Positions 3,498 to 42,576 of a DNA stretch of 64,000 bases are shown here, one piece after another. Where the stretch lies: positions 1,181-65,180 of IMG/VR virus record IMGVR_UViG_3300036985_001339. One strand, 5' to 3'. The translations under genes and the position numbers were made by a program. The notes beneath the pieces were generated by a model that was not told the DNA's origin, did no database searches, and saw only the letters and a list, made by a program, of their open reading frames with translations. The stretch's first letter is position 1. Each line of letters begins with the position of its first letter. Source of the stretch: a virus. Taxonomy: Duplodnaviria; Caudoviricetes.

Positions 3498-3757
3498 TAT
3501 AAAACAACTACTACATCCGACAATCTTATTACATGGTGAGTATCTTTATCTATATCTATCTTATGTCCAGCGTGTCTGTCATAAAATATAACATCTTTTT
3601 CTTTTATACCTACAACTTCATCACCAACTGATAATACCGTTGCTTTTATATATCTAATATCTTCTCTTTGATTCTCTGCTAATAAAAGTCCTCCCTTTGT
3701 TGCCGTAGTTCCTTCTTTTACTTTATCTATGATTAAACACTTACCTATTGCCTTCAT
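3497..3757 (-). CDS. groES: Co-chaperonin GroES
   Basis: TKGGLLL mobile loop, V.SVG, D.IFY; adjacent to groEL. Confidence 0.9.
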   Translation of the reverse strand: MKAIGKCLIIDKVKEGTTATKGGLLLAENQREDIRYIKATVLSVGDEVVGIKEKDVIFYDRHAGHKIDIDKDTHHVIRLSDVVVVL

Positions 3758-5300
3758 TTACTCTTAAGTTATTGATTACACAATTGGTCGATAATATAGT
3801 TGTAGCAACTGATACAGCATTCTTTAAAGCACTTTTAGTTACCAATAAAGGATCTATAATTCCTGCTTTTATCATATCAACTGTTTCACCAGTTACAACA
3901 TTAAGTCCATAACCTATTTTTGATATTGCTTCTATAGGAGCATGTTCTATTCCAGCATTTTCTAATATAATATTAAATGGTGCTCTTATTGCATCTAGAA
4001 GAATTTCTCCTCCAATAGAAAAAGAATCTATATTATGCGAAGCGTTTAATAAAGCTATTCCACCGCCTGGTACAATACCTTCTTTTATTGCTGCTTTAGT
4101 TGCGCATATTGCATCTTCTATTCTATCTGCTTTCTCTTTTAACTCTATACTAGAATTAGCACCAACTTTAACAATTGCTATCTTAGCGGATAAACGTGCT
4201 AATCTTCTTTCAAGTTTGATAACATTGTGAGTTGTATTCTTTTCTAGTAATTTCTTTTTTATATCGTCTATAATAAGCAAAATGTCTTCAGGAGTTTCTC
4301 CTACGTGTAATATAGTTTCTTCGTGAGATGTTATACTTTTTACACATGTACCAAAATGTTCTGGTTGGAATAAATCTAAGTCATCTCCAAGATCTTCATT
4401 TATTATAGTAGCACCTGTTAATAGTGCTAAATCATCTAGTATTTCTTTTTTACTAATTCCATAAGCAGGAGCATCTAAAACATTTACTTTTATATTTCCT
4501 TTAATCTTATTCATTGCTAAAGCAGAAACTACCGCCTGTTCTAAATCACCTATGATTAATAATGATTTATTATTCTTTATAACATACTCTAGAGCAGGTT
4601 GTATTTGTCTTATTGTTTCAACAGGAGATTCCATTAATAGAATTAAAGGATTATCTAACTCTGCTGTTTTTTTCTGTACATTTGTAATAAAGTGAGTATT
4701 AGTTAAACCTTTACTATATTGAACACCTTCTACAACTTCTAAACTACAATCAGCATTTTCTGATGTTTCCATCATTACAATACCGGTTTCACCTACAGAT
4801 CTAAATGCATCGGCAACTAATTTACCTAATACAGGATCGTTGTTAGTGGATATAGTAGCTACGTGATCAATCATTTCACCTGTTACGGTTACTTTCATTT
4901 TTTCTAAATAATCTACAACTTTGTCACACATAGATTCAATACCTTCTTTTACTTTTCTAGTATTTGAATCAGAGTGTTTGTAAGCTTCACTTAATATAGC
5001 GTGTGCTAATACCGTTGCGGTTGTTGTACCGTCTCCAGCTTCTCTAACTGTTTTTCTTGCTGCTTCTTTTAAAAGAGTAGCACCCATATTTTCTACAGGA
5101 TCTAACAATATAATAGAATCGGCAACTGTTACACCGTCTTTCGTTATAACTGGATTACCAGAACTATCTTCAAGTAGTACACATTTACCACTAGCACCCA
5201 ATGTAGAACCAACTGCTTTAGTTAGTTTCTCTATACCTATAAATACTTTATCACTAGCTTCTTTTCCGAAACTAAGATTTTTGACTATACCGTCTGACAT
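3741..5300 (-). CDS. groEL: Chaperonin GroEL
   Basis: ITKDGVTVA, AGDGTTTATVLA, EGIVPGGG and GIIDP motifs. Confidence 0.97.
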   Translation of the reverse strand: MSDGIVKNLSFGKEASDKVFIGIEKLTKAVGSTLGASGKCVLLEDSSGNPVITKDGVTVADSIILLDPVENMGATLLKEAARKTVREAGDGTTTATVLAHAILSEAYKHSDSNTRKVKEGIESMCDKVVDYLEKMKVTVTGEMIDHVATISTNNDPVLGKLVADAFRSVGETGIVMMETSENADCSLEVVEGVQYSKGLTNTHFITNVQKKTAELDNPLILLMESPVETIRQIQPALEYVIKNNKSLLIIGDLEQAVVSALAMNKIKGNIKVNVLDAPAYGISKKEILDDLALLTGATIINEDLGDDLDLFQPEHFGTCVKSITSHEETILHVGETPEDILLIIDDIKKKLLEKNTTHNVIKLERRLARLSAKIAIVKVGANSSIELKEKADRIEDAICATKAAIKEGIVPGGGIALLNASHNIDSFSIGGEILLDAIRAPFNIILENAGIEHAPIEAISKIGYGLNVVTGETVDMIKAGIIDPLLVTKSALKNAVSVATTILSTNCVINNLRVNEGNR

Positions 5301-13132: not shown

Positions 13133-13151
13133 TGTAACTAGTTTATGTATA

Positions 13152-13184
13152 CTCTTTTAATCACATAGAAATTATTAAATTTAC
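13152..13184 (-). promoter_or_regulatory. Class-2 promoter GTAAA-N15-GTGATTAAAAGAG
   Basis: Shares AAATGTAAATTTA with the copy at 25192; heads the left late operon. Confidence 0.6.
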
Positions 13185-13195
13185 ATTTTAGTTAG

Positions 13196-13289
13196 TGTAT
13201 AATATATTGTACGTTAGATGTCATTTATATGCTTAATGTATCATATATTGTACATTATCAGTTCTTTTGTGTATTATATAACACGTTGT
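13196..13289. repeat. Three imperfect ~21-bp direct repeats (TGTATNATATAWYGTACRTT-like)
   Basis: Copies near 13196, 13237 and 13270. Confidence 0.45.
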
Positions 13290-13501
13290 TGTAAAAAAAA
13301 ATACTATAAAAAATTTTTTTGAGGTTGGGTGTTTATGTGAGATGTAGGGAGATTTTGTGTTACTACGCTATTTCTAACTTGAAATTTGAATTCGGAAACG
13401 CTTTTTAGTTTGGCGGGTTCCCCAACTTCTGAGGTTCCTAGGTTCTGCGATGAGTCGTATCGTGTCGATCGTATAAAGGGATTGAGCTTTTACCTTTCAG
13501 T

Positions 13502-13511
13502 ATGTATAGCA
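13502..13511 (-). repeat. TGCTATACAT site beside the promoter of paralog 1
   Basis: One of 12 TGCTATACAY copies. Confidence 0.6.
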
Positions 13512-13516
13512 TCCAC

Positions 13517-13554
13517 CACGGAGTTACTCTATTGCTTATCAGATAATATATATG
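13517..13554 (+). promoter_or_regulatory. Class-1 early promoter CACGGAGTT-N15-AGATAATATATATG
   Basis: 8 copies with invariant 15-nt spacing, all upstream of plus-strand ORFs. Confidence 0.7.
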
Positions 13555-13592
13555 AAAGCAATTAAGCTATCAATCTAATAAATAAATAAACT

Positions 13593-13859
13593 ATGCCAAA
13601 CACAGCAGCAGTTGCAGCAGCAACACCAACAGTAGCATTGACTACAAAAAGATTCGTTATCAGAAAGAGTTTGATCGGCACTAACACAGTGATCTCATTC
13701 ACCAACAACAAGCAAGTAGTGTGTACCTACAATCATGACAAGGTATACAATCAGTTGAAGACTAAGTTTGATCTTATGCCTTGCTTCGCTAAGTATGGGT
13801 CTTACACTAACACTAACAACCTACCTGCATTCGTAAGAGCGTTAACAGAGTTAGTATAG
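13593..13859 (+). CDS. Triplicated early protein, copy 1
   Basis: 72-aa core TTKRFVIRKSLIG...LPAFVR shared with two other ORFs. Confidence 0.9.
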   Translation: MPNTAAVAAATPTVALTTKRFVIRKSLIGTNTVISFTNNKQVVCTYNHDKVYNQLKTKFDLMPCFAKYGSYTNTNNLPAFVRALTELV

Positions 13860-13864
13860 TCAAT

Positions 13865-13892
13865 CGATCTAAGCATATCGTTAAACTGCTTA
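13865..13892 (+). ncRNA. Putative H-type pseudoknot, copy 1
   Basis: CGAT/ATCG and TAAGCA/TGCTTA stems; covarying second copy at 14404. Confidence 0.55.
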
Positions 13893-13918
13893 CTTTATCT
13901 AATCTAATCTTATCTATC

Positions 13919-14023
13919 ATGAAATACGTATCATCATTCTTTAGTCAAGCGAAGCCACAGATATTGCTAGCTTTATACATCGGTCTTTACTTCGTAATAC
14001 GATCTGTTGTATCTTACATCTAA
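13919..14023 (+). CDS. 34-aa membrane peptide (MKYVSSFF...), not in ORF track
   Basis: Translated by hand; one TM segment; ends before a terminator. Confidence 0.55.
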   Translation: MKYVSSFFSQAKPQILLALYIGLYFVIRSVVSYI

Positions 14024-14041
14024 TCTATCTATTGTTTAATC

Positions 14042-14065
14042 AAGGACCTTCGGGTCCTTTTTTTT
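14042..14065 (+). terminator. Intrinsic terminator
   Basis: AAGGACC-TTCG-GGTCCTT plus T-run. Confidence 0.9.
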
Positions 14066-14074
14066 AGCTTAAAC

Positions 14075-14084
14075 ATGTATAGCA
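14075..14084 (-). repeat. TGCTATACAT site beside the promoter of paralog 2
   Basis: Exact motif copy. Confidence 0.6.
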
Positions 14085-14086
14085 CA

Positions 14087-14124
14087 CACGGACTTACAAG
14101 TTTTTATAAAAGATAATATATTTG
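14087..14124 (+). promoter_or_regulatory. Class-1 promoter CACGGACTT-N15-AGATAATATATTTG
   Basis: Contains the Bacteroidota -7 element TAnnTTTG. Confidence 0.75.
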
Positions 14125-14163
14125 AAGATTAATAATAATCTTTATAATTTAATATTTAATACT

Positions 14164-14397
14164 ATGCAAAATTCAATCACCACAAAAAGGTTTGTTATCA
14201 GAAAAAGTCTAATTGGTACAAACACAGTAATTAGTTTTACTAACAACAAAAATGAGTTGATGACTTATGACCATGACAAAGTCTATAACCAACTAAAAAC
14301 AAAGTTTGACTTAATGCCTTGTTTTGCTAAATATGGTAGTTATACTAATACTAATAATCTACCAGTATTTGTTAGAACATTGAAAGAGTTAGTTTAA
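14164..14397 (+). CDS. Triplicated early protein, copy 2 (start MQNS)
   Basis: 64/72 core identity to copy 1; ATG at 14164 lies downstream of the promoter. Confidence 0.9.
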   Translation: MQNSITTKRFVIRKSLIGTNTVISFTNNKNELMTYDHDKVYNQLKTKFDLMPCFAKYGSYTNTNNLPVFVRTLKELV

Positions 14398-14403
14398 TCA
14401 AAT

Positions 14404-14430
14404 GACCTAAGCAAGTCTTAAAACTGCTTA
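14404..14430 (+). ncRNA. Putative H-type pseudoknot, copy 2
   Basis: GAC/GTC and TAAGCA/TGCTTA stems. Confidence 0.55.
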
Positions 14431-14455
14431 TTATATTAATCTTAAATCAAATCAC

Positions 14456-14629
14456 ATGAAGTTAGTTAAAACAGTAAGTAAAGAGTCAGGGACAGTGTAC
14501 ACAGAATACACAGATGGTAGTAATACATTTATCTATGAAGATGATGTGTTGGTAGGAGTTGAAACACTAAGTTTCACTGCAACAATAAGTAATTCAGACA
14601 ACAGTTTAGTTGAGTTTGTAGAATTATAA
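14456..14629 (+). CDS. 57-aa acidic protein (MKLVKTVSKE...), not in ORF track
   Basis: Translated by hand; lies between the pseudoknot and a terminator. Confidence 0.65.
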   Translation: MKLVKTVSKESGTVYTEYTDGSNTFIYEDDVLVGVETLSFTATISNSDNSLVEFVEL

Positions 14630-14646
14630 TAACATAGTAACTAAAT

Positions 14647-14668
14647 AACCCTCAGAAATGGGGGTTTT
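14647..14668 (+). terminator. Intrinsic terminator
   Basis: AACCCTCA-GAAA-TGGGGGTT plus T. Confidence 0.75.
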
Positions 14669-14672
14669 ACTA

Positions 14673-14710
14673 CACAGACTTATAAAGACACAAGTCAGAT
14701 AATATCTTTG
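14673..14710 (+). promoter_or_regulatory. Class-1 promoter variant CACAGACTT-N15-AGATAATATCTTTG
   Basis: 15-nt spacing; TAnnTTTG. Confidence 0.7.
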
Positions 14711-14738
14711 AAATTAATAATAACTTAAATCAATCATT

Positions 14739-14915
14739 ATGAGTATTTACACAGAAGAGAACATTGTAACATTAGACAACAAACAGTATGAAAAACTATT
14801 TAATCATCCCTATGATGAGAAGTATAGAATTATCTTTAGTGATGAAGATTATGATTACATCGAAGATGAGCGTATGATCGCTATATTAGATGAAGAATAT
14901 TATAAGTTAGTGTAA
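14739..14915 (+). CDS. 58-aa acidic Tyr-rich protein (MSIYTEEN...), not in ORF track
   Basis: Translated by hand; has its own promoter and terminator. Confidence 0.7.
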   Translation: MSIYTEENIVTLDNKQYEKLFNHPYDEKYRIIFSDEDYDYIEDERMIAILDEEYYKLV

Positions 14916-14927
14916 CATATCTAATCT

Positions 14928-14950
14928 AAGACCCTCGAAAGAGGGTTTTT
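14928..14950 (+). terminator. Intrinsic terminator
   Basis: ACCCTC-GAAA-GAGGGT plus T-run. Confidence 0.85.
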
Positions 14951-15028
14951 ACTCTACTTAATTGTGGAATTGGCAGGCAGAGGTGTGCGTAGTCGCTAAT
15001 GAAGGAATATAACTGGTAATACCATAGT

Positions 15029-15038
15029 ATGTATAGCA
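15029..15038 (-). repeat. TGCTATACAT site beside the promoter of paralog 3
   Basis: Exact motif copy. Confidence 0.6.
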
Positions 15039-15041
15039 CTT

Positions 15042-15079
15042 CACGGACTTACGACGTTTAATATTTGATAATATATTCG
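15042..15079 (+). promoter_or_regulatory. Class-1 promoter CACGGACTT-N15-TGATAATATATTCG
   Basis: 15-nt spacing. Confidence 0.7.
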
Positions 15080-15118
15080 AAGATTAATAATAATCTTTAT
15101 AATTTTAATTAATAAACT

Positions 15119-15415
15119 ATGCCAGTAAAAACTTCAAAAGCGGTTGTAGCAGCGATAGCAGCTCCCGCAGTAGTAACAACTACAAAAAATGCTTTAACGA
15201 CTAAACGCTTCGTTATTCGCAAGTCATTAATAGGCACTAACACAGTAATTAGTTTTACTAATGTTAAGCAAATACTATGTACTTACGACCACGACTTAGT
15301 TTATAACGCTTTAAAAGCTAAATTTGACCTTATGCCTTGCTTTGAAAAGTATGGTAGTTATACTAATACTAATAATTTACCCGCTTTCGTTAGAGCGTTA
15401 CCAACTTTAGTATAA
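15119..15415 (+). CDS. Triplicated early protein, copy 3
   Basis: 62/72 core identity to copy 1. Confidence 0.9.
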   Translation: MPVKTSKAVVAAIAAPAVVTTTKNALTTKRFVIRKSLIGTNTVISFTNVKQILCTYDHDLVYNALKAKFDLMPCFEKYGSYTNTNNLPAFVRALPTLV

Positions 15416-15426
15416 TTAATTAAATA

Positions 15427-15452
15427 AGTCGCCTTCGGGCGGCTTTTTTTTT
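15427..15452 (+). terminator. Intrinsic terminator
   Basis: AGTCGCC-TTCG-GGCGGCT plus T-run. Confidence 0.9.
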
Positions 15453-15454
15453 AT

Positions 15455-15637
15455 TTATAATGAGTGCCTGTGCACTGTTCTTCTGTGTACATTTAGCAAT
15501 AAAGCTATTGAAGTAACAGAATTAAATGGAAATAACGCTCTTAATTTAGTGACTTTCTCTTTAGTAGTGATTGACTTGTCTTTACTTATTTCAGTAGCAA
15601 TAATCCAATCTTCAATTGACCATTTAGATGTTCTCAT
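15455..15637 (-). CDS. Small HTH protein
   Basis: SVTSIALLLNVHRRTVHRH HTH pattern; has its own class-2 promoter. Confidence 0.65.
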   Translation of the reverse strand: MRTSKWSIEDWIIATEISKDKSITTKEKVTKLRALFPFNSVTSIALLLNVHRRTVHRHSL

Positions 15638-15703: not shown

Positions 15704-15750
15704 TATGACAATAGCCCCTTACTCTTCTTACTTAATACCCTAATGTCATA
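15704..15750. promoter_or_regulatory. Split inverted repeat TATGACAATAG-N25-CTAATGTCATA (operator or ori candidate)
   Basis: Same half-sites recur at 23539-23584. Confidence 0.5.
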
Positions 15751-18399: not shown

Positions 18400-18430
18400 G
18401 ACGCTTGCTATACACGCTTTTTAGCGTGGT

Positions 18431-18496
18431 CGGTTAAATCTGGCGATGGTTCAATAGCATAGGTTGAACTGAGAGTTCGATTCTCTCTTATCCACA
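18431..18496 (+). tRNA. Non-canonical tRNA-like element 2
   Basis: T-arm GAGAG-TTCGATT-CTCTC; 8-bp stem with a 7-nt loop containing CAT; imperfect acceptor; no D arm. Confidence 0.45.
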
Positions 18497-18544
18497 AAGT
18501 TATCATAGTGATAACCTTTATTAATCTCTTTAATCCCTTTAAGA

Positions 18545-23538: not shown

Positions 23539-23584
23539 TGTGACAATAGGGTCTATATATAAAGAATAACAGACTAATGTCACA
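23539..23584. promoter_or_regulatory. Split inverted repeat TGTGACAATAG-N24-CTAATGTCACA over a start codon
   Basis: Same half-sites as 15704-15750. Confidence 0.5.
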
Positions 23585-24194
23585 CGATAGAAATATAAAG
23601 TATTTAACTGATAGACGTATAATATATAGAAGGTTTCCATTAGAAGATACACCAACACAGAGATTTGAGTGGGGTGACTATTATGAAGATGGAACCTTCG
23701 AGTGTTATGAGTTGTTTAGAAGTAAGGCCAAAATTAATACTTATAGAAGTCTAAAATGGCATTTGTTAGTTATATGGTATCTTAATCCTAAACTAGGTCA
23801 AGATAAATTAGAAACTTTATGTAAGTTTATTTGTGATAAGAAAAACAATTTTGTTACCTTTACCATATCAGATCAGTTAATGAAAACTATATTATATGAA
23901 GTAAGTATGAAAGATCTAGAATCTCCTCCTAAGAATAAAGTTAGGAAGATAATATTTAAAGACCAATGCCAATTAACGGCTGAACAGAAACTACAAATTG
24001 TAGGTCAAATTATCGGTCGTAAGAAATTATCTGAGTCAGAGATTTACGATGCTATGCTATACACTCATGATGATGGTGAAAAAATTACTGTTGAAAAAAT
24101 AGCAAGATATTTAGGTTGTTCTGCTAGAACTGTTTACAGAAATATGGGTGAAGAACTTAAAAGAGAAAAAGAATTATTAAACCAAGAATTATGA
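23577..24194 (+). CDS. DNA-binding protein with C-terminal HTH (regulator or replication initiator)
   Basis: ITVEKIARYLGCSARTVYRNM. Confidence 0.75.
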   Translation: MSHDRNIKYLTDRRIIYRRFPLEDTPTQRFEWGDYYEDGTFECYELFRSKAKINTYRSLKWHLLVIWYLNPKLGQDKLETLCKFICDKKNNFVTFTISDQLMKTILYEVSMKDLESPPKNKVRKIIFKDQCQLTAEQKLQIVGQIIGRKKLSESEIYDAMLYTHDDGEKITVEKIARYLGCSARTVYRNMGEELKREKELLNQEL

Positions 24195-24400
24195 GTAGAA
24201 ACAGAACTTTAAAAGAATCATTCATTAGAGACGCGATTAAAGGCACTATTAGAAATGATGTTGAAATTGCTGAAAAATTTGCTATTGGATTTTTAGATTG
24301 GATATACTATGATAAAAACAATTATGCAGAAGATTGGCATAATGGTTATTATTCAACTCCAAAACTATTAGAAATCTATAAAAAAGAAAAAGGATTATGA
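24191..24400 (+). CDS. Hypothetical protein
   Basis: FAI.F..W...LLEIYKKEKGL pattern. Confidence 0.65.
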   Translation: MSRNRTLKESFIRDAIKGTIRNDVEIAEKFAIGFLDWIYYDKNNYAEDWHNGYYSTPKLLEIYKKEKGL

Positions 24401-25188
24401 AAAAGTATAATTTACAAAATTATTTAAGGTATAAAGACGATGTCAAAAAAACCCTTAAAAGAATAGACAAAAAGAACTATAGTGATTATACTAGAGACGA
24501 ACTAATAGCCACATTTCTACCTTTAGTAGAGAATATATCTAAAAAGTTTTCTACAGCAGATCAAGCATCAGGTATAATGGATATAACTGATATAATTCAA
24601 GAAGGTAGTATAGGTTTAATATTTGCTGTTGATAAAATAGAATGGGAAACTATAAACTCTTCTAACAATCAAGAACAAACTATTAAATCTTTTCTATCAA
24701 AAAGAATTAAAGGTTCTATTAGAAGAGCTATTGATATTAATAGAGGTTCTATACGTATACCAGAACATAAGTTAAATGAGATGCGTAGAAATCCAGAGGA
24801 TAAACAAATGGTTGAAATGTTCTTTAATAGTATATTTCAAAGCATAGACAAAGACGATAGTTTATTTTACGAAGATAGTAACGGTGACGGCGGTGGTGGT
24901 GTAAGTTCTTATGCTGAACAGTATGAAGACAAGTCTAAAGAATATAATATAGATTTTCTTAATGCTTATCTGTTTGGTTTATTTAAAAAATATTTAACTC
25001 ATAATGAGTCTGAAGTATTAAGATTAAGTTATGGTTTAGATTGTGATAAACATTCTGCCAATGCTATTGCTGATTTTTTAGGATTTAAAGGTCCTAGTGC
25101 TTACGTCAGAGTTTCTGAGTTAAAAAAACTAGCAGTAACCAAGTTAATAGATAATGTAGATTCATCGCAAGTAATTGACTATCTGTAG
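24397..25188 (+). CDS. Sigma-70 family sigma factor
   Basis: Region 2 (LPLV..I.K, DIIQEGSIGL..AVDK), IRIP and region 4 (VLRLSYGL...RVS). Confidence 0.85.
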   Translation: MKKYNLQNYLRYKDDVKKTLKRIDKKNYSDYTRDELIATFLPLVENISKKFSTADQASGIMDITDIIQEGSIGLIFAVDKIEWETINSSNNQEQTIKSFLSKRIKGSIRRAIDINRGSIRIPEHKLNEMRRNPEDKQMVEMFFNSIFQSIDKDDSLFYEDSNGDGGGGVSSYAEQYEDKSKEYNIDFLNAYLFGLFKKYLTHNESEVLRLSYGLDCDKHSANAIADFLGFKGPSAYVRVSELKKLAVTKLIDNVDSSQVIDYL

Positions 25189-35187: not shown

Positions 35188-38100
35188 TTACGGAGTCTTA
35201 AACTCCGGTACTTTTAATGATTGTGTTTTTAACTCTGGTATCTTCAAACCTCCACTTGAATTAATTTGAACTGGAGCTGATTGATTTAAACCTAAATTGT
35301 ATTCATTATAACCTAACAATGAATATATTCTTTGCCAATTACTATAATCACTATTTAATGCATTTCCAATATTTTGCATTTTCAAGTATAATCTATCTGC
35401 AGGGAAATTACTAGCAGCTGATGTTAATGAAGTTGCTGCTTCTATTGCATATTTATTATCTAGACTAAAACCTTTCCACATTATTTCGTCTTTATTATAT
35501 TCTATAGACTTATAAGCTTTTGCCGTTGCTCTTAACTTAATACCTATAGAAGGCGAAACATTAGAAAGTTCTAATAAAACATCTCCGTAACCTTTTGGAT
35601 CACCACTTTTTTCATACCATTTTATTATTGCGTTTTTAACAGTAGATAGTAATACTCCTGTTAAACCAGTACCTCTAACTAAAGTATCAAATGCCCCGTT
35701 CAGTGTACGTATCACAGCTTTATTTAATCTATTTTTCTCTTGTTCATCATCGTCGTCCCATACCATAGAAAACAAAGCATTCTGTAAAGCATTAAACATT
35801 AAGTTTTGAATTACAGCATAATAAGTTATTTTAGCTATATTATTAGGTACACTACCTCTTCCCTTTGCAATATCTATAAAAGACTTTTTAATAATCCTAG
35901 AATATTGAAACGGCGTATTCATAAACGATAGTAACAATCTTCCTTTTGTACTAGCTTGATTCATTGATATTTTAGAAACGTCAGCAGATTGTTGAGATAT
36001 TTCTGATGTTTCATAGAAATCACGCATCGTTGCTTTCTTAGCATCTTGTTCTGAATAACCTTGTTTTAAATAAGTCTTTAATCTATTTCTATAAAAACCA
36101 GCTCCACCAATTGCTATTGCAAAACTATCCATAAATCTAGTAGGAACAAAACCTTGTTTTAAAAACCAGTAATTTGCTGCTTTTATTTTATCTAATGGAT
36201 TGTTATTTCTAGGATCATTCATTAACTGAGCAAGTTCTGCTTCAGCAACGTCATTCATTAAACCAGATCTTCTATCTCTAAGATAATCTGAATTCCATAT
36301 CGTAAAGAAATCCTCTGTATATTGTTTAACATTAAGCAATGCCGCTCCAGCTTTTAATACGTTGTTATCTCCAGTGTTTATATAATTGACAGCACCTAGA
36401 GTTTGCAACAAAGCAGATCTAACATTCCAGAACATCGTAACAGCGGTAGAACCATTTATCCAATTTAATAAAGCATCAGACGAACCCTCTGCTCTATTAC
36501 TACCAGTCTTCATTCTATATAACATGTTTTCTAAAGCTTTAACGTATTTTCTACCGTAAATAGCTTCAATCTTACTCATGTTATCTTTAGAGAAGATTTT
36601 GTCAACATTACCTTGCCATTCACTTAAGAATTTTGCTCTATTTGTTTTAGATATAACATTGTTAATATCACCAACAACACTACCAAATCCCCAATTGTGA
36701 CCTGGTTCTGTATAACCATTAGGTTGTTTTGACAATAAAGAAACGTCTTTAGCAAAGTCTCTTAATCTAGGATTAGTTCTTACTATTTCTTTTAAATGGA
36801 ATAAGTCTTTTTTATCAAGTCCAGGTATTGGGTATCCAGCTGTACTCCATAAATAAACTCTAACAGCTTGATCCACTAAGTAACCTCCGTAACCAGAATC
36901 TTGTTTAAGTTCTTTACTTATACCTTTGTACTTCTTATTTATTAAACTATTCCAGTCTTTATACATCGTCTGTCTCTCTTTCATCAAGTTCAACATTGCA
37001 TCACTGTATGGTTTTAATAGATTGTCAGTAAGAAAATCTATTTGTTCTTTACCTTCTTGTCCTTTTCCAGAACCAAGCGTGTATAGCAAACCTAAGAAAT
37101 CCTCATCTTCCGGTGGTAAGTATATATCATATTTACCAATGTTTTTACCTAAATTTTTAGCAGTTTCAGGAGAATAAGTTGCAGAAGCTTCAATACCTTT
37201 ATTTTGCTCTATGATTTCGTTCATAGTTCTTTCTAGGTTTGAATTTTTTTCTACTATTTCTTGATACTTTTTAGATTTAAAATCAAGTGTTTCTAAAACC
37301 TGTTTAGTTAAAGGTCCTTCAGTATTCTTTTTAACTTTAAATTCAAAGTTATTATAACCATCTGCTACTTTTTGAATTAAGAAGTAGGCAGTTTGTTTAT
37401 CTGAAAACTTAGATCTACTTGGTACTTTAAAGTCAATTTTAATACCATCTGCTACTTTAGCATTTTTTATAGCTTTGTCAATATCTCTGGCAACAGTCCA
37501 TTGTTCAGTTAAAGGTAATCCTTCTAAGAAACTAGATATTTTACCATTTTCTTCTTCTGCTAAACTAAATTTAACAATACTACTTTTACCTTTAGCCATA
37601 TCGTCTAAAACCTTAGCTCTAATAACCTCGTTTTTTAAATCGTTTGCTAAGTTAACGTTTCTTTCAGAGACTCTATCTAAAAATTCAGATTCTCTAATCA
37701 ATCTTCTAGCTTCTTGTAAAACTAAAACATCACCAAACAACTCCATTAAAGCTGTTCTTCTATCAAAATAAGCAGTAGGAACTAAACCCTTACCTGTTTT
37801 GTCATTGATTTCTGAATCTTCAAATTGTTTTAATTCTTCATTAGCATTATCGCCACCGTAAGTTTTTATTATACGAGTGGCTTCATCTATACCATAATAA
37901 GACTGCAAAAACTTAACTCTATCTATATTACCTATTTTTCTTAAATTACCTTTATCATCAAACTCTTTTAATCTAGGTGGTAATTTTTTAGAAGCATAAC
38001 TTGATTCTCCAGTAACAGGATCTACAGGGTGATTAATAACATCGTAAAGTAGTTTCCATTGATTATACATTAACGATTCAATTTCTGGACCATTTTTAAA

Positions 38101-41100
38101 TGTCATTCTTCTTGCCATTGTTTTAGATAATGTAGACAATTTCTCTTTGAAATTTCTATATTCTAAAGTTTCAATGTTTGGAGATCTAAGTATTTCACGT
38201 CCAACCTCATCAGAAATGATTTTAGCCGGTGTATCTTGCATGGAAAGAGCTTTAAACGTATTTACAGTCATTCCGGTAGAAAGATCATAAGATTTAAAAG
38301 ATTTTAATGCTTTTAACTCTTCTTTTTCATCGTATGTTATGTCTTTTTTGTTTTGAAGTTCTAAACCTCTATCTAAATCTTTTAACTCAGATTCTAATTC
38401 AGCAATTTTAACTGGATCAGTCTCTGTTCTAAGTTTTCTATTAGCAGCAACAGTTGGATCAGATGCTTCTGTTACAAAGAACCCACCAAAAGGTACTGTT
38501 TCAATATCTATAGGTTTTCCATTATCGTCTACAAAGTTAAATACTGGATCACTAAGTAATACAGCAAGATTGCTTTGTTCTTGTTCAAAGTCTTGTTCTG
38601 CATCAAATACACTGTCTGATTCATCTAAAAAATCAGACTCTTCTCCTGTTTCACCAGCAAAGTCAGACAATACTCTTGTTTCTTTAAATCCTTCACCTTG
38701 TATATCGTCGGTAAACATTTGAGAAGTAACATTTCCAGACTTAAGAGCATCTTTCATTTTGTTAGCCAACTGAGAGTTTATCCAAGCATTTAAGTCATCA
38801 TTTTCTTTTACGATGCCTTTCTTACCTTGGTATCCTTTTTCGTCTTTTGCTTCTACTTTATCTTTAAACTCTTTACTGTTTGGGTCTAAACCTTTTGATT
38901 CTAATTCTTTTTTGTATTCATCTCTCTTTTCTAAAAACTCTTTATTAAAGTTTCTAATATGAGGAATCATTGCAATTTGAGTTTCACTAACAAAATCCAT
39001 TGGACTAAAGTCTGGTAAGTTTACATACCCTAAACCTTTAGCTTTTCCGTTTATAATATATTCATATTCGCTAAGAATATCATATAGTGTAGATTTTCTA
39101 TCACTATTAACATCTTTAGTCCATGTATCTTTATTATATGTTTTGTTTATATCTTTTTTAATATCCTCTGAAGACTTTCTTTCACTTAGTGAAAACTTAG
39201 GTTTAGATACAACAACTAGTTCTTCAACTTTTTTAATAGGTGTTTTAGCTCCTGTTTCTGTTCTAAGAGATTCTTTATTTATTACTGCTTTACCTTTTCC
39301 AAGTTTTCGCATACCAATTCCCCAATTACCAGACTCAACACTTTTGTTGTAATCTTTTAAGAAGTTGTAAACATCTCTTCCACTTTCAAATTTAATATCT
39401 TTTATTCCTAAGTATTGAAGAACTTGTCTTATTGTATCCTTAAGACGATTCATGGTACCTTCATCATATTTTACTAATCCTTGACTTATTGCATCAGAAT
39501 ATAGTGTTAATGTTTCTTCCCATTTGTCTCCAATATTAGTATCTATTTCTTCTTGAAGTTCAGATTTTTTATTATCGTATTCTTCTTTTGTTATTTTACC
39601 TTCTTTATAATTGTTATAATAGTCATCTATTTCATCTAACAACACGTCGTTGGCTTCTTCATAAAATTTACGATATGCTTTAAATTTTTTAGCAAATTCT
39701 TCAGGCACTACAGTTTCTCCTTTTCCTTCAGAATCAACGATGTTTTTCATTTTCATTAATTCATTAGAAAGAGCAGTACCTAGTAACTTTTTAGCTTCAG
39801 GATCATCTGCTACAGAATTAGAAATTAAAGCATGTAAAAATTCGTGTTGACCTACTGAAAAGTCTCCTCTTGCAACAGTTCTTTCTTCATTAACAAAAAT
39901 AAATTTCTTGCCTTCTATTATGTTATCAGGATCGGAAGAAACATCTTTTAAATATTGTGAATTAAGAAAAAGACCTTTATTAGCCGCGTTAAATTTAGCG
40001 TCGGCTGGTTTCATATTGTATGTGTTTATTAAGTAATCTTCTAATTGCTGTGTAGTCTTAAAAGTTTTAAATTCAGTATTTTTAATAACTCCTTTCTCTA
40101 AAGCTTTTGTTAAAACTATATTTTTTTGTTTTAACTTTTCTTCTACCTGTATTTTATTTATATTGTTTCTTATCTCATCTATTTTAATATCTATATCAGG
40201 ATGAAAAACTTTATCTACTGTTTCTTTTTCATTTTGAAGTTTAGTAACTTTATCTAACTCTCTCATTACAGGCATTGCCGCATCAGGAGATATGTTTTTA
40301 GTAAGTTTATTTACATTGTTAGAATATATATCTACGTCTTTTTTTAAGTTTTCAACTTGATCAACTGTAAATACTTTTTGTCCAACTAGACCATCTACAA
40401 TTTTTGTAAATTCTTTTTTATTTTTAGCTAATGTACTGAGTGACGTTAAATCATCTATTGACTGATTTCCACCGTGAAAACTAGGTAGTTTTGCTTTAGA
40501 TATTAAACCAGAAGACACAAAAGATAAAATAGAAGTATTCATAAAGTCGTCTCCAGACATAACTTCATTCATAATCTTTTTACCAGCATCTCTGTTAGTC
40601 ATTTTATTAACACCAATTTCGCCGACTTGTTGTATGTTTTCCTGCACTACCTCTTTTCCACCTTCTTCGGCAAAACCAACTAAGTTTCTAGGAGTACTTT
40701 TAATCATATCATCTAAATACGCAACAAAACCTTTCTCACCTGTTTTAGTATATTGTTCTATTGCTTTTTTGATTATATTTTTAGAACCAAAAACGTTTTC
40801 AACTAATTTTGTTTGTGGATTTATAACACCTGTAGTACTATATAATACTGCCATTCTTTGAGCGGCATTAGCAGCTAGTTTAAAAGCGTCTTTATCATTT
40901 ATACCATTATCTCTTGCTGCTTTTAATGTATCTTCATAACCTTGAGAATATCCTAAAGCACCTTGTGCAACCATAGAATAACCTGTTGCTCTATCTAAAG
41001 GTATTTTTCTAAGTAACTGAGATGAATCGTTTAATATGGAAGTAAATTTACTAGTTGGTTTTGCGGCACTTAAAGCAACTCTTGCTTCTGTACTTAATGC

Positions 41101-42576
41101 TCCAAGTTCACCAACACCACGTGTTAAAGCAGCTTGTATAAGCATGTCTGCCATAACACCTGAAGTTTGAACAGCAGCTCCTTGAGTACTGAACACCCAA
41201 TCAGATTGTCCGTATTGAGATTCTTGTATTAATTTATCATGTGTGTTTTTATCAAATACATCTGTAACACGGATTTTAGCATCGGCATCGTATATCTCTC
41301 CTTTAGAGTCTACTAAATATTTAGTACCATTATAGTCAACTGTTTTACCAGAAACGTATGAAATACCTCTATCGTCAGGTCTTATGAATTTGTTTTCTTC
41401 ATCAAGCATTCTAACGCCTTCGGCTGTTTCGTCCATTCCAATAGCACCATATACAGTAGCACTAACTTGTTTAGTTCTATCTGCAATAGCATTCCAACCG
41501 GCTTTACCCATCTTTTCAGCGGTATCCCAACTAAAGAAGTCAGTTCCGCCTCTTTTAGATTCTTCATATATCTTAGCGTTCTGTTTATCTCTTTCTTTTA
41601 ATTTTTCAGTTATTATTGGAAAGTTTTTTTCAACGTAATTTGCAATACCGTTTGGATCAAATATTTGATTTTCTTTTATTTCTTTTTTATCTCTAGCACC
41701 AACAACCATTTCCATTTCTTGGTTAAGGTCTTGTCTAGTATAATCTCTTCTCTTGATGTCTTCCATGTACATATTCAACATCTTCTTTTTAGCAAGTTCC
41801 CTAGCTAAACCAACGTTGTATCCACCCCAAGCATCTTTACCTTCTCCTTTAAAAAGACCTTTTTCTTCTTTATCTAAATAGTCTTCTTTAAAACCTTTTT
41901 TATTTAAAAAACCTTCAAAGTCTTGTGTATTAATACCAAAACCTTCTAATTCTTTTTTATTATAGTTATTCTCAATAAAATCGTCAGGTTGTTCTTGATT
42001 TATTGAAGAATAATATTGGTAAGGATGATCAAGTTCTGAATCAGTTTGTTGTATTTTATCTTTTAACTTAGCAAGTTTAAACTCAGTATCATAACCAGGT
42101 TTACCAGTAATTGGATTATCTGCAAAGTTGTCAACAAAATCTTTCATCTCTTCCTTTGAACCAGCAAGTTTAACTTTTGCTTTTTGTTCATTTCTTTGTC
42201 CAGGAAGTTTTATTTTTTGTATTAATTCTTGTTGTTTTTGTTCTGCTTTATTTTGTTTTAAATCGTATAGATTTTGACTTTCTTCAACAGAAACTCTAGG
42301 TTGAGAAGAAGGAGGAGGCATTATACCTCTCTTTTGAGCAGACTGTAAATCTTCTTCTCCTGCTAATCTATATTTTGGTGAAGCCGAAGAACCATCTACC
42401 GGCATTGATTCCCCATTTTGTGCTTGAGGTTTCTTTGACGCTACAGTCGCACTCTTTGCAACGCCTTTTGACTTTTTTGCACCTGGATTTTTTACTAAAA
42501 ACGTTAATCTATCTGTTTGTGAATAATCCGATAAATCTACTTGTGATCCGTCTGACAATGTATATATTTCCTCCAT
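35188..42576 (-). CDS. 2462-aa internal virion/ejection protein
   Basis: Size, helical composition and position after the tail genes. Confidence 0.7.
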   Translation of the reverse strand: MEEIYTLSDGSQVDLSDYSQTDRLTFLVKNPGAKKSKGVAKSATVASKKPQAQNGESMPVDGSSASPKYRLAGEEDLQSAQKRGIMPPPSSQPRVSVEESQNLYDLKQNKAEQKQQELIQKIKLPGQRNEQKAKVKLAGSKEEMKDFVDNFADNPITGKPGYDTEFKLAKLKDKIQQTDSELDHPYQYYSSINQEQPDDFIENNYNKKELEGFGINTQDFEGFLNKKGFKEDYLDKEEKGLFKGEGKDAWGGYNVGLARELAKKKMLNMYMEDIKRRDYTRQDLNQEMEMVVGARDKKEIKENQIFDPNGIANYVEKNFPIITEKLKERDKQNAKIYEESKRGGTDFFSWDTAEKMGKAGWNAIADRTKQVSATVYGAIGMDETAEGVRMLDEENKFIRPDDRGISYVSGKTVDYNGTKYLVDSKGEIYDADAKIRVTDVFDKNTHDKLIQESQYGQSDWVFSTQGAAVQTSGVMADMLIQAALTRGVGELGALSTEARVALSAAKPTSKFTSILNDSSQLLRKIPLDRATGYSMVAQGALGYSQGYEDTLKAARDNGINDKDAFKLAANAAQRMAVLYSTTGVINPQTKLVENVFGSKNIIKKAIEQYTKTGEKGFVAYLDDMIKSTPRNLVGFAEEGGKEVVQENIQQVGEIGVNKMTNRDAGKKIMNEVMSGDDFMNTSILSFVSSGLISKAKLPSFHGGNQSIDDLTSLSTLAKNKKEFTKIVDGLVGQKVFTVDQVENLKKDVDIYSNNVNKLTKNISPDAAMPVMRELDKVTKLQNEKETVDKVFHPDIDIKIDEIRNNINKIQVEEKLKQKNIVLTKALEKGVIKNTEFKTFKTTQQLEDYLINTYNMKPADAKFNAANKGLFLNSQYLKDVSSDPDNIIEGKKFIFVNEERTVARGDFSVGQHEFLHALISNSVADDPEAKKLLGTALSNELMKMKNIVDSEGKGETVVPEEFAKKFKAYRKFYEEANDVLLDEIDDYYNNYKEGKITKEEYDNKKSELQEEIDTNIGDKWEETLTLYSDAISQGLVKYDEGTMNRLKDTIRQVLQYLGIKDIKFESGRDVYNFLKDYNKSVESGNWGIGMRKLGKGKAVINKESLRTETGAKTPIKKVEELVVVSKPKFSLSERKSSEDIKKDINKTYNKDTWTKDVNSDRKSTLYDILSEYEYIINGKAKGLGYVNLPDFSPMDFVSETQIAMIPHIRNFNKEFLEKRDEYKKELESKGLDPNSKEFKDKVEAKDEKGYQGKKGIVKENDDLNAWINSQLANKMKDALKSGNVTSQMFTDDIQGEGFKETRVLSDFAGETGEESDFLDESDSVFDAEQDFEQEQSNLAVLLSDPVFNFVDDNGKPIDIETVPFGGFFVTEASDPTVAANRKLRTETDPVKIAELESELKDLDRGLELQNKKDITYDEKEELKALKSFKSYDLSTGMTVNTFKALSMQDTPAKIISDEVGREILRSPNIETLEYRNFKEKLSTLSKTMARRMTFKNGPEIESLMYNQWKLLYDVINHPVDPVTGESSYASKKLPPRLKEFDDKGNLRKIGNIDRVKFLQSYYGIDEATRIIKTYGGDNANEELKQFEDSEINDKTGKGLVPTAYFDRRTALMELFGDVLVLQEARRLIRESEFLDRVSERNVNLANDLKNEVIRAKVLDDMAKGKSSIVKFSLAEEENGKISSFLEGLPLTEQWTVARDIDKAIKNAKVADGIKIDFKVPSRSKFSDKQTAYFLIQKVADGYNNFEFKVKKNTEGPLTKQVLETLDFKSKKYQEIVEKNSNLERTMNEIIEQNKGIEASATYSPETAKNLGKNIGKYDIYLPPEDEDFLGLLYTLGSGKGQEGKEQIDFLTDNLLKPYSDAMLNLMKERQTMYKDWNSLINKKYKGISKELKQDSGYGGYLVDQAVRVYLWSTAGYPIPGLDKKDLFHLKEIVRTNPRLRDFAKDVSLLSKQPNGYTEPGHNWGFGSVVGDINNVISKTNRAKFLSEWQGNVDKIFSKDNMSKIEAIYGRKYVKALENMLYRMKTGSNRAEGSSDALLNWINGSTAVTMFWNVRSALLQTLGAVNYINTGDNNVLKAGAALLNVKQYTEDFFTIWNSDYLRDRRSGLMNDVAEAELAQLMNDPRNNNPLDKIKAANYWFLKQGFVPTRFMDSFAIAIGGAGFYRNRLKTYLKQGYSEQDAKKATMRDFYETSEISQQSADVSKISMNQASTKGRLLLSFMNTPFQYSRIIKKSFIDIAKGRGSVPNNIAKITYYAVIQNLMFNALQNALFSMVWDDDDEQEKNRLNKAVIRTLNGAFDTLVRGTGLTGVLLSTVKNAIIKWYEKSGDPKGYGDVLLELSNVSPSIGIKLRATAKAYKSIEYNKDEIMWKGFSLDNKYAIEAATSLTSAASNFPADRLYLKMQNIGNALNSDYSNWQRIYSLLGYNEYNLGLNQSAPVQINSSGGLKIPELKTQSLKVPEFKTP

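Follow-up and report, generated by a model that had tools for sequence, protein, structure and literature searches.

Three copies of one gene at the start of the rightward arm

The DNA analysed here (the window, 64,000 nucleotides) comprises bases 1181-65180 of the 65,180-base viral contig IMGVR_UViG_3300036985_001339, which has a completeness rating of 100%. Next to a divergent junction, at the start of the rightward gene arm, lie three related genes, copies 1, 2 and 3, that are the subject of this study (Table 1). An earlier reading made from the letters alone (the sequence-only reading) had described them as three synonymously recoded copies of an early protein that it did not recognise, and its open reading frames (ORFs), their start positions and their placement at the beginning of this arm were all reproduced. 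For copy 2, the ATG at 14164 was preferred over a TTG at 14122 because the TTG lies at or before the expected transcript start.

The last 72 residues of the three proteins form a common core, with identities of 64/72 (copies 1 and 2) and 62/72 (copies 1 and 3), the same values as read before, and of 60/72 for copies 2 and 3. The nucleotide identity of the cores is only 70.8-72.2%. Identical residues are encoded by different codons at 40 of 64 positions between copies 1 and 2, at 34 of 62 between copies 1 and 3 and at 28 of 60 between copies 2 and 3, and the longest identical runs within the coding regions are 11, 14 and 27 nucleotides (nt), respectively. Our codon table agrees exactly with the two details that had been singled out: 13 of the first 22 identical residues differ in codon between copies 1 and 2 (including a serine encoded by TCA and AGT), and copy 3 uses CGC for arginine where copy 1 uses AGA.

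Each copy has its own rigid early-type promoter, which consists of CACGG(A/C)(G/C)TTA, a spacer of exactly 15 nt and GATAATAT, about 75 nt 5' of the ATG. The sequence TGTATAGCA is found 3-5 nt upstream of the promoter at each of the three copies, so that the pairing of a promoter with an adjacent site, claimed for every copy, is present throughout. The claim that every copy also forms a promoter-terminator cassette of its own is correct for copy 3 alone: copy 1 shares its unit with a 34-amino-acid (aa) ORF and copy 2 with a 57-aa ORF, and the hairpins directly 3' of copies 1 and 2 are weak (-3.7 and -5.4 kcal/mol, no better than shuffles). There are eight instances of the same promoter type between 13.5 and 23.2 kb. 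In the related loci described below, the promoter motif has 104 matches on the plus strand and 3 on the minus strand, and it is found about 75 nt before the ATG in 44 of 44 copies (window and loci L001-L020); farther relatives have kept GATAATAT, with a different upstream box.

The sigma-A consensus of Bacteroidota hosts is TTTG at -33 and TAnnTTTG at -7. A TAnnTTTG that overlaps GATAATAT is present in three of the eight promoters (14087, 14673 and 15793) while the others deviate, and the element conserved across the clade is GATAATAT with the fixed upstream box. The sigma-like gene of the phage itself has one of these promoters upstream of it (23118), and at least the first round of transcription would thus have to use factors that are present at entry; for later genes, the host RNA polymerase is probably reprogrammed by the phage.

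Table 1. Features of the window, with positions counted from its first base.
Feature	Position	Strand	Details
GroEL-like chaperonin, phage-encoded	3741-5300	-	PHROG 5725, E 9e-133
Divergent junction	13133-13592		start of rightward arm
Conserved non-coding stretch before first promoter	13290..13500	+	A9/T7 tract, GGGTTACTAC, GCCGGGTTCCCC
TGTATAGCA site adjoining promoter 1	13503..13511	+	10-mer family TGCTATACA[C/T]
Promoter 1	13517..13549	+	CACGGAGTTA-N15-GATAATAT
Copy 1	13593..13859	+	88 aa; A/T/V-rich N-tail; GC content at third codon positions (GC3) 0.50
34-aa hydrophobic ORF, copy-1 unit	13919..14023	+	tblastn: 13/73 related loci
Terminator, unit 1	14042..14067	+	-10.6 kcal/mol, then U-run
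TGTATAGCA site adjoining promoter 2	14076..14084	+	
Promoter 2	14087..14119	+	CACGGACTTA-N15-GATAATAT
Hairpin in 5' untranslated region (5'-UTR) of copy 2	14123-14144		
Copy 2	14164..14397	+	77 aa; short N-terminus
57-aa acidic ORF, copy-2 unit	14456..14629	+	predicted co-transcription with copy 2; 3/73 related loci
Terminator, unit 2	14647..14669	+	-12.3 kcal/mol
Separate cassette between copies 2 and 3	14673..14952	+	promoter, ORF, terminator
58-aa acidic ORF of separate cassette	14739-14915	+	0/73 related loci
Terminator of separate cassette	14928-14952	+	strong hairpin and U-run
TGTATAGCA site adjoining promoter 4	15030..15038	+	
Promoter 4	15042..15074	+	CACGGACTTA-N15-GATAATAT
5'-UTR hairpin of copy 3	15079-15098		27 nt in common with copy-2 hairpin
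Copy 3	15119..15415	+	98 aa; long A/V/T/P-rich N-tail
Terminator, unit 4	15426..15454	+	-12.4 kcal/mol, U9
Lone 60-aa ORF within rightward arm	15455-15637	-	weak helix-turn-helix (HTH)/NUMOD1-like C-terminus
Imperfect inverted repeat	15705-15750		TGACAATAGCC...N about 20...CCTAATGTCA; between unit of copy 3 and next promoter
tRNA-like cloverleaf	18426-18497		four stems; T-arm GAGAG-UUCGAUU-CUCUC; 8-bp 'anticodon' stem; weak acceptor stem
HTH protein	23577-24194		5' of sigma-like gene
Sigma-factor-like protein	24397-25188		PHROG 351, E 1.8e-14
2461-aa ORF, structural arm	35188-42576	-	

An old gene family under strong purifying selection

The phage belongs to a large clade of uncultured podophages of the Flavobacteriia type, 57-72 kb in length. 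A profile search against 1.84 billion representatives found the family in 443 clusters at 50% identity (E<=0.001), and 1654 proteins of the 90%-identity cluster database match at E<=0.01. In IMG/VR there were 211 matching stretches, of which 73 loci were kept, each with all its copies on one strand. Within the 2.5 kb upstream of the family, minus-strand ORFs dominate in 59 of 71 loci (the other 12 are mixed), showing that the family opens the rightward arm, with its genes for replication and nucleotide metabolism, throughout the clade; conservation across the clade does not extend to the other genes of the locus. Where the flanks are intact (40 loci), one copy is present in 13 loci, two in 21, three in five and four in one, so that most intact relatives carry 2-4 copies. 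Single-copy relatives, which the sequence-only reading had named as a point against itself should they encode a known housekeeping fold, thus exist, but the fold is not a known housekeeping one. Many metagenome contigs (L002, L008-L011 and others) stop a few hundred bases past the first copy, which is probably caused by assembly breakage at the repeated cassettes; as contigs break at this locus, copy numbers from assemblies are lower bounds.

With three family members as queries (copy 3, a copy of the deep 'clade A' paralogue and P0256), tblastn found no match in 50,697 GenBank phage records (one chance-level hit, E 0.8), and in the GenBank phages nearest to this one (MW202828.1, Maribacter phage Panino and Flavobacterium phage elemoF) a hidden Markov model search detected no family member either. 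Literature searches with the peptide words of the family returned no mention of it, and those on early genes of freshwater Flavobacterium phages nothing relevant.

The age of the copies cannot be read from synonymous distances: the proportion of synonymous differences between paralogues (Nei-Gojobori pS) is 0.77-1.04 and thus saturated, the synonymous rate dS is undefined, and the method overcounts two-fold sites in an AT-rich gene. We therefore used orthologue pairs and a codon-sharing test, in which codons at identical residues are compared with random draws from the codon usage of the genome. Copies 2 and 3 share 32 codons (31.5 expected), which is chance level, copies 1 and 3 share 28 (32.8 expected, P 0.13) and copies 1 and 2 share 24 (34.0 expected), which is below chance (P about 0.007). 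The excess of codon differences in copy 1 is explained by its own GC3-rich codon usage (GC3 0.50, compared with 0.18 for the genome). The description of the copies as redundant and sequence-diversified is therefore only partly correct: copies 1 and 2 are below chance in codon sharing, but copies 2 and 3 are at random expectation.

Against orthologues in related contigs, the ratio of non-synonymous to synonymous substitution rates (dN/dS) is 0.03-0.084 in all 11 usable pairs, excluding a value near 1; the twelfth pair (copy 1 of the window with copy 1 of L004) was misregistered and left out. In a tree of 129 copies and 72 columns, in which many forks are unresolved, all three window copies fall within one clade of 36 rows (support 96*), and the copy-2 orthologues of six relatives (L003, L004 and L012-L015) group with copy 2 of the window (Shimodaira-Hasegawa-type approximate likelihood ratio, SH-aLRT, 91), indicating that the duplication predates the split of these phages. 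Farther relatives have two deep paralogue lineages (99*), independent duplications are found in several lineages elsewhere in the tree, and orthologous copies have kept their distinctive N-tails across phages. The triplication is thus old, as the sequence-only reading had proposed in preference to a recent gene accordion, with each copy maintained under strong purifying selection, and duplication of this gene recurs.

The codon bias of the family is also that of strongly expressed genes. In 111 of 124 copies GC3 exceeds the value for background long ORFs, and in 106 of 124 the proportion of C-ending NNY codons does so too; for copy 1, the C-ending fraction of the F, Y, N, H, D and C codons is 0.68, compared with 0.58 in the gene of the capsid-like protein and 0.28 in the genome. 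The copy with the highest GC3 is the first of its array in 28 of 40 multi-copy loci, a hint that the promoter-proximal copy is the one most strongly selected for translation.

Could the copies simply be leftovers of neutral duplication, redundant and with no meaning for dosage or specialisation? The variation in copy number between one and four among relatives, and the loci that manage with one, would fit. However, purifying selection is strong on every copy, each has kept its own promoter, the N-tails are preserved among orthologues, and duplications arose repeatedly and independently. We consider neutral redundancy the least probable of all explanations discussed here.

As to the remainder of the genome, leftward genes encode the terminase, portal, a capsid-like protein, tail fibres and a 2461-aa protein, and rightward genes (13.5-35 kb) a primase-helicase, an ERF recombinase, a PDDEXK exonuclease, thymidylate-synthase-like and MazG-like enzymes, a ribonucleotide reductase and the sigma-factor-like protein. 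The capsid-like protein is 41-51% identical to homologues of an uncultured spring podovirus, Maribacter phage Panino, Flavobacterium 'elemo' phages and Cellulophaga phages. DNA nearly identical to the window occurs in freshwater, lake and sediment metagenomes (20 sequencing runs, type DNA or unknown). The sigma-factor-like gene and the HTH gene 5' of it are conserved in those relatives whose flank extends that far. The 2461-aa virion protein is reminiscent in size of giant injected proteins of other podophages; it was checked as a candidate for an injected RNA polymerase, and it has no family match in Pfam or PHROGs and no sequence match in the PDB. Two of the small ORFs between the basic copies (14456-14629 and 14739-14915) are very acidic, with a charge like that of DNA-mimic-type proteins, and variable among relatives.

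A basic domain, alone and fused to glycosylase-fold proteins

The family is unrecognised, as had been stated from the letters alone. Scans of all three copies against Pfam and PHROGs gave hits of E 0.068 at best, all well short of the cut-offs, PADLOC gave 0 families for all three copies and NCBIfam 0 families for copy 1, a profile built from 115 sequences matched nothing among all PDB chain sequences at E<=10, and the ESM Atlas gave no usable hit. A structure prediction with a Foldseek search, which the sequence-only reading had proposed, did not change this picture: the AlphaFold2 model of copy 1 has a predicted local distance difference test score (pLDDT) of 83.3 and a predicted template modelling score (pTM) of 0.65, with four strands, three short helices, a strand and a helix in this order, and fold searches with Foldseek and VIA-align found no clear match. 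The weak structural neighbours include PD-(D/E)XK nucleases.

Ten residues are invariant in the 115 sequences (R20, F21, Y46, H48, D49, C64, Y68, Y71, T72 and P78), and K, R and Y are frequent among the invariant and near-invariant positions. In the same sequences the core is basic, its median isoelectric point being 9.72 and its median net charge +7; the residues T, A, V, K, S and P abound in the long N-tails. A homodimer prediction (residues 14-88, two copies, alignment A2) scored 0.01, which speaks neither for nor against binding. With invariant His48, Asp49 and Cys64, the cysteine being at the N-terminus of a helix, the protein might be a small enzyme or a metal-binding protein, but the domain has only about 72 aa, none of its structural matches comes near a meaningful Z, the library scans hit no nuclease or peptidase family, and its occurrence as a C-terminal appendage to an enzyme looks more like that of a targeting module. 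A catalytic or metal-binding role is thus quite improbable and ranks above neutral redundancy only.

This appendage is found in longer proteins among the profile hits, which carry the phage-type domain at the C-terminus. Five further 'longer' hits were single-member proteins on contigs of about 1 kb with part of the domain only; these were treated as chimeric or frameshifted assemblies and set aside. The best-supported fusions have about 370 aa (cluster member P0286 is found on 68 contigs), and the first 255 aa of these proteins are also found by themselves or joined to other tails. In the model of P0248 (pLDDT 87) the N-terminal domain has the fold of the uracil-DNA glycosylase (UDG) superfamily, to which uracil- and thymine-DNA glycosylases belong: all of the 50 top PDB hits in Foldseek are thymine-DNA glycosylase (TDG), UdgX, family-4 UDG or SMUG1 (best E 4.2e-4, probability 1.00). 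The C-terminal domain has, in the model, the same order of secondary structure elements as the phage protein. Among 80 bacterial loci with a UDG-like gene, three have the phage-type domain (E 2.5e-28, 2.9e-27 and 4.5e-8), and all three are Flavobacteriales or Bacteroidota metagenome-assembled genomes. Other fused forms are P0194, with an HNH-like Cys/His pattern seen by eye only and undetected by Pfam, and P0238 and P0257, with GreA-C-like hits of E 0.001-0.0025, below the Pfam cut-offs.

The fusions and the charge of the domain point to nucleic-acid binding as its probable function. Since the gene is moreover a conserved core gene of the clade and no patchy accessory, the anti-defence or host-takeover role that the sequence-only reading had suggested is not the one that we favour. 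As an anti-defence protein, the free domain would shield phage DNA, or act as a decoy for host enzymes that use the same domain, such as the UDG-fold fusions of Flavobacteriales. In keeping with this, the family genes are the first of the early arm, the presumed host group has UDG-fold enzymes that carry the same domain as a fusion, and two reports (PMC11078745; bioRxiv 10.1101/2025.10.29.685425) show that UDG-fold glycosylases, of the Brig1/Brig2 kind, protect bacteria from phages whose bases are modified; the thymidylate-synthase-like and MazG-like enzymes of the phage might feed such a base modification. Anti-defence genes are, however, usually patchy and fast-evolving, and this family is a core gene with dN/dS of 0.03-0.08 and ten invariant residues. 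There is no sign of modification in the phage DNA, and the fused UDG-fold proteins have no PADLOC match and no defence context among their neighbours. Pfam and PHROGs, which include several anti-defence families, gave no match to the phage protein. An anti-defence role is therefore unlikely, although it is the alternative that we would consider first.

A host-takeover factor would act on a conserved host protein, for example RNA polymerase or a nucleoid protein, instead of on DNA. Extreme conservation suits a conserved target, the cassettes are laid out like the host-takeover modules in the early regions of SPO1, T5 and T4, and the weak GreA-C-like domain of two fused forms belongs to an RNA-polymerase-binding fold. 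But the GreA-like hits do not reach the threshold, a nucleic-acid target agrees better with the high positive charge and the UDG-fold fusion, and the association with a sequence motif, described in the next section, would be left with no explanation. We regard this role as improbable, if still preferable to that of a small enzyme.

The 10-mer, a candidate function and known systems

The sequence TGTATAGCA that precedes the promoters is part of a 10-mer, TGCTATACA[C/T]. Counting both strands, TGTATAGCA has 12 sites in the phage genome, compared with 0 for a reversed control. Three of these precede the promoters of the copies, and a fourth, inverted, stands equally far from the next promoter. 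Another seven are spread along the rightward arm, all with TGCTATACA on the coding strand, and one is at 37080. The related loci contain 201 sites in 702,553 bases (about 5.4 expected, a roughly 37-fold enrichment), distributed over 53 of the 73 loci. In the sequence logo TGCTATACA is followed by C (82%) or T (17%), and the flanks have no conserved signal. The three related GenBank phages that lack the family have 0 sites. When IMG/VR was scanned for the motif only, at least 122 loci with two sites 0-6 nt apart were found, and among the tandem-site loci listed the family is encoded within the fetched flank in 83 of 122 (56 of 79 long and 27 of 43 short ones). Most sites are just 3' of a family gene, at a median distance of about 74 nt. 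In nine tandem-site contigs with no family gene nearby, the family is absent from the whole contig, and the five family-less tandem-pair contigs that were counted have only 2-3 sites each. A literature search with the 10-mer matched only primers and short hairpin RNAs.

Two other explanations of the 10-mer were considered. The 60-aa minus-strand HTH ORF behind copy 3 was rejected as its binder, as it is present in 0 of the 73 related loci; this ORF was probably inserted recently. That the 10-mer acts as a promoter for the phage's sigma factor is less likely, because there is no second conserved element, tandem pairs are 10-13 nt apart, the site is found in either orientation at the same distance from an early promoter, and none lies upstream of the right-hand late operon. 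The family itself is possibly the reader of the 10-mer; it is the best available candidate, and the case is circumstantial.

Other non-coding elements are found near the locus. An alignment of positions 13290-13500 with eight related loci has blocks of invariant columns, there is no Rfam or tRNA match in this stretch, and it is a candidate for an origin, a packaging site or a small RNA. The tRNA-like cloverleaf directly follows a TGCTATACAC site and is not called by ARAGORN; GTTCGATTC-type T-arm elements are also present 3' of family genes in distant relatives, where GAATCGAAC is the top GC-containing 9-mer, found in 16 of 21 loci that have only the clade-A paralogue. The halves of the inverted repeat are among the commonest 9-mers of related loci, with CTAATGTCA in 45 of 52.

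Our preferred reading, to which we assign a probability of about 0.45, is that the three genes are long-diverged paralogues of an early core gene and provide large amounts of an early DNA-binding protein, built on a basic domain of about 72 aa that in two of the three follows a low-complexity A/T/V/P-rich N-terminal tail, with the 10-mer as candidate target. The phage would need much of this basic protein very quickly, and several independent transcription units would supply it; copies would persist only after their DNA had diverged too far for recombination. The domain, a predicted DNA-binding module, may coat or organise the incoming phage DNA, or regulate the early arm, in the manner of phi29 p6. 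Its best candidate target would be TGCTATACA[C/T], which flanks the family's own genes and is scattered through the early arm.

Several points weigh against this reading. There is no exact site in 20 of the 73 family loci, and site density is 0.07 per kb in loci that have only the deep clade-A paralogue, compared with 0.37 per kb; with this five-fold lower density, the link between motif and family could simply follow phage relatedness. The invariance of H48, D49 and C64 could mark a metal or catalytic site instead. That the protein is early and abundant is inferred from gene layout and codon usage, and the argument from fusions has one well-supported partner, the UDG fold.

In a bolder version of this reading, the domain would be a new fold and a sequence-specific DNA binder and the 10-mer its cognate site, a pair that would serve the clade for marking its genomes and for early regulation. 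Bacteria of the host group would have joined this reader domain to a UDG-fold glycosylase that locates such DNA and either attacks or repairs it, and the free domain of the phage, made from several copies, would compete with the host fusion for these sequences. We consider this unlikely, less so than a host-takeover factor and more so than an anti-defence role. If the domain does read the 10-mer, a 9-kDa protein and a 10-bp site would make up a new DNA-binding fold with a defined target. Phages of this clade are abundant in lakes, in sediments and in the sea, and their hosts are a major aquatic group of bacteria; what are probably the first genes of these phages belong to a large conserved family with no database name and no match to GenBank phages by tblastn.

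Among known systems, the host-takeover module of SPO1, the pre-early region of T5 and the early genes of T4 are arrays of small genes with strong repeated promoters, often with their own terminators. The locus described here likewise has small genes at the start of an early region, each with a repeated strong promoter; however, the genes of those arrays are unrelated to each other, whereas here one gene is present in one to four copies, with variable genes in between. Small basic DNA-binding proteins, of the HU/IHF type and others, are encoded by some phages, for example TF1 by SPO1. The phage protein is small and basic too, but it has no Pfam hit to Bac_DNA_binding or any other family beyond chance level (scan at E<=1), and its predicted topology of four strands, three helices, a strand and a helix appears unlike the HU fold.

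The likeness to p6 of phi29 would be one of role only. According to PMC10899789, p6 is a histone-like early protein that organises the genome; the phage protein is likewise small, early and, by inference, abundant, and it might similarly act in DNA binding, the start of replication and the early-to-late switch. The p6 gene is single-copy, unlike the family described here. The phage protein has no PDB sequence match (0 at E<=10), and p6 is not among its Foldseek and VIA-align matches, which by itself excludes no family. The fold of p6 was likewise unmatched before its structure was solved.

Accessory DNA-targeting domains in fusions with DNA glycosylases and nucleases are a further parallel, as are the defence glycosylases Brig1 and Brig2; the phage protein differs in having no glycosylase domain. 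The likeness lies in the homology of the phage domain to the C-terminal domain of Flavobacteriales proteins that have the UDG fold, the fold of these defence enzymes (PMC11078745; 10.1101/2025.10.29.685425). Such a fusion in the host group would link the family to the newly recognised glycosylase branch of phage defence.

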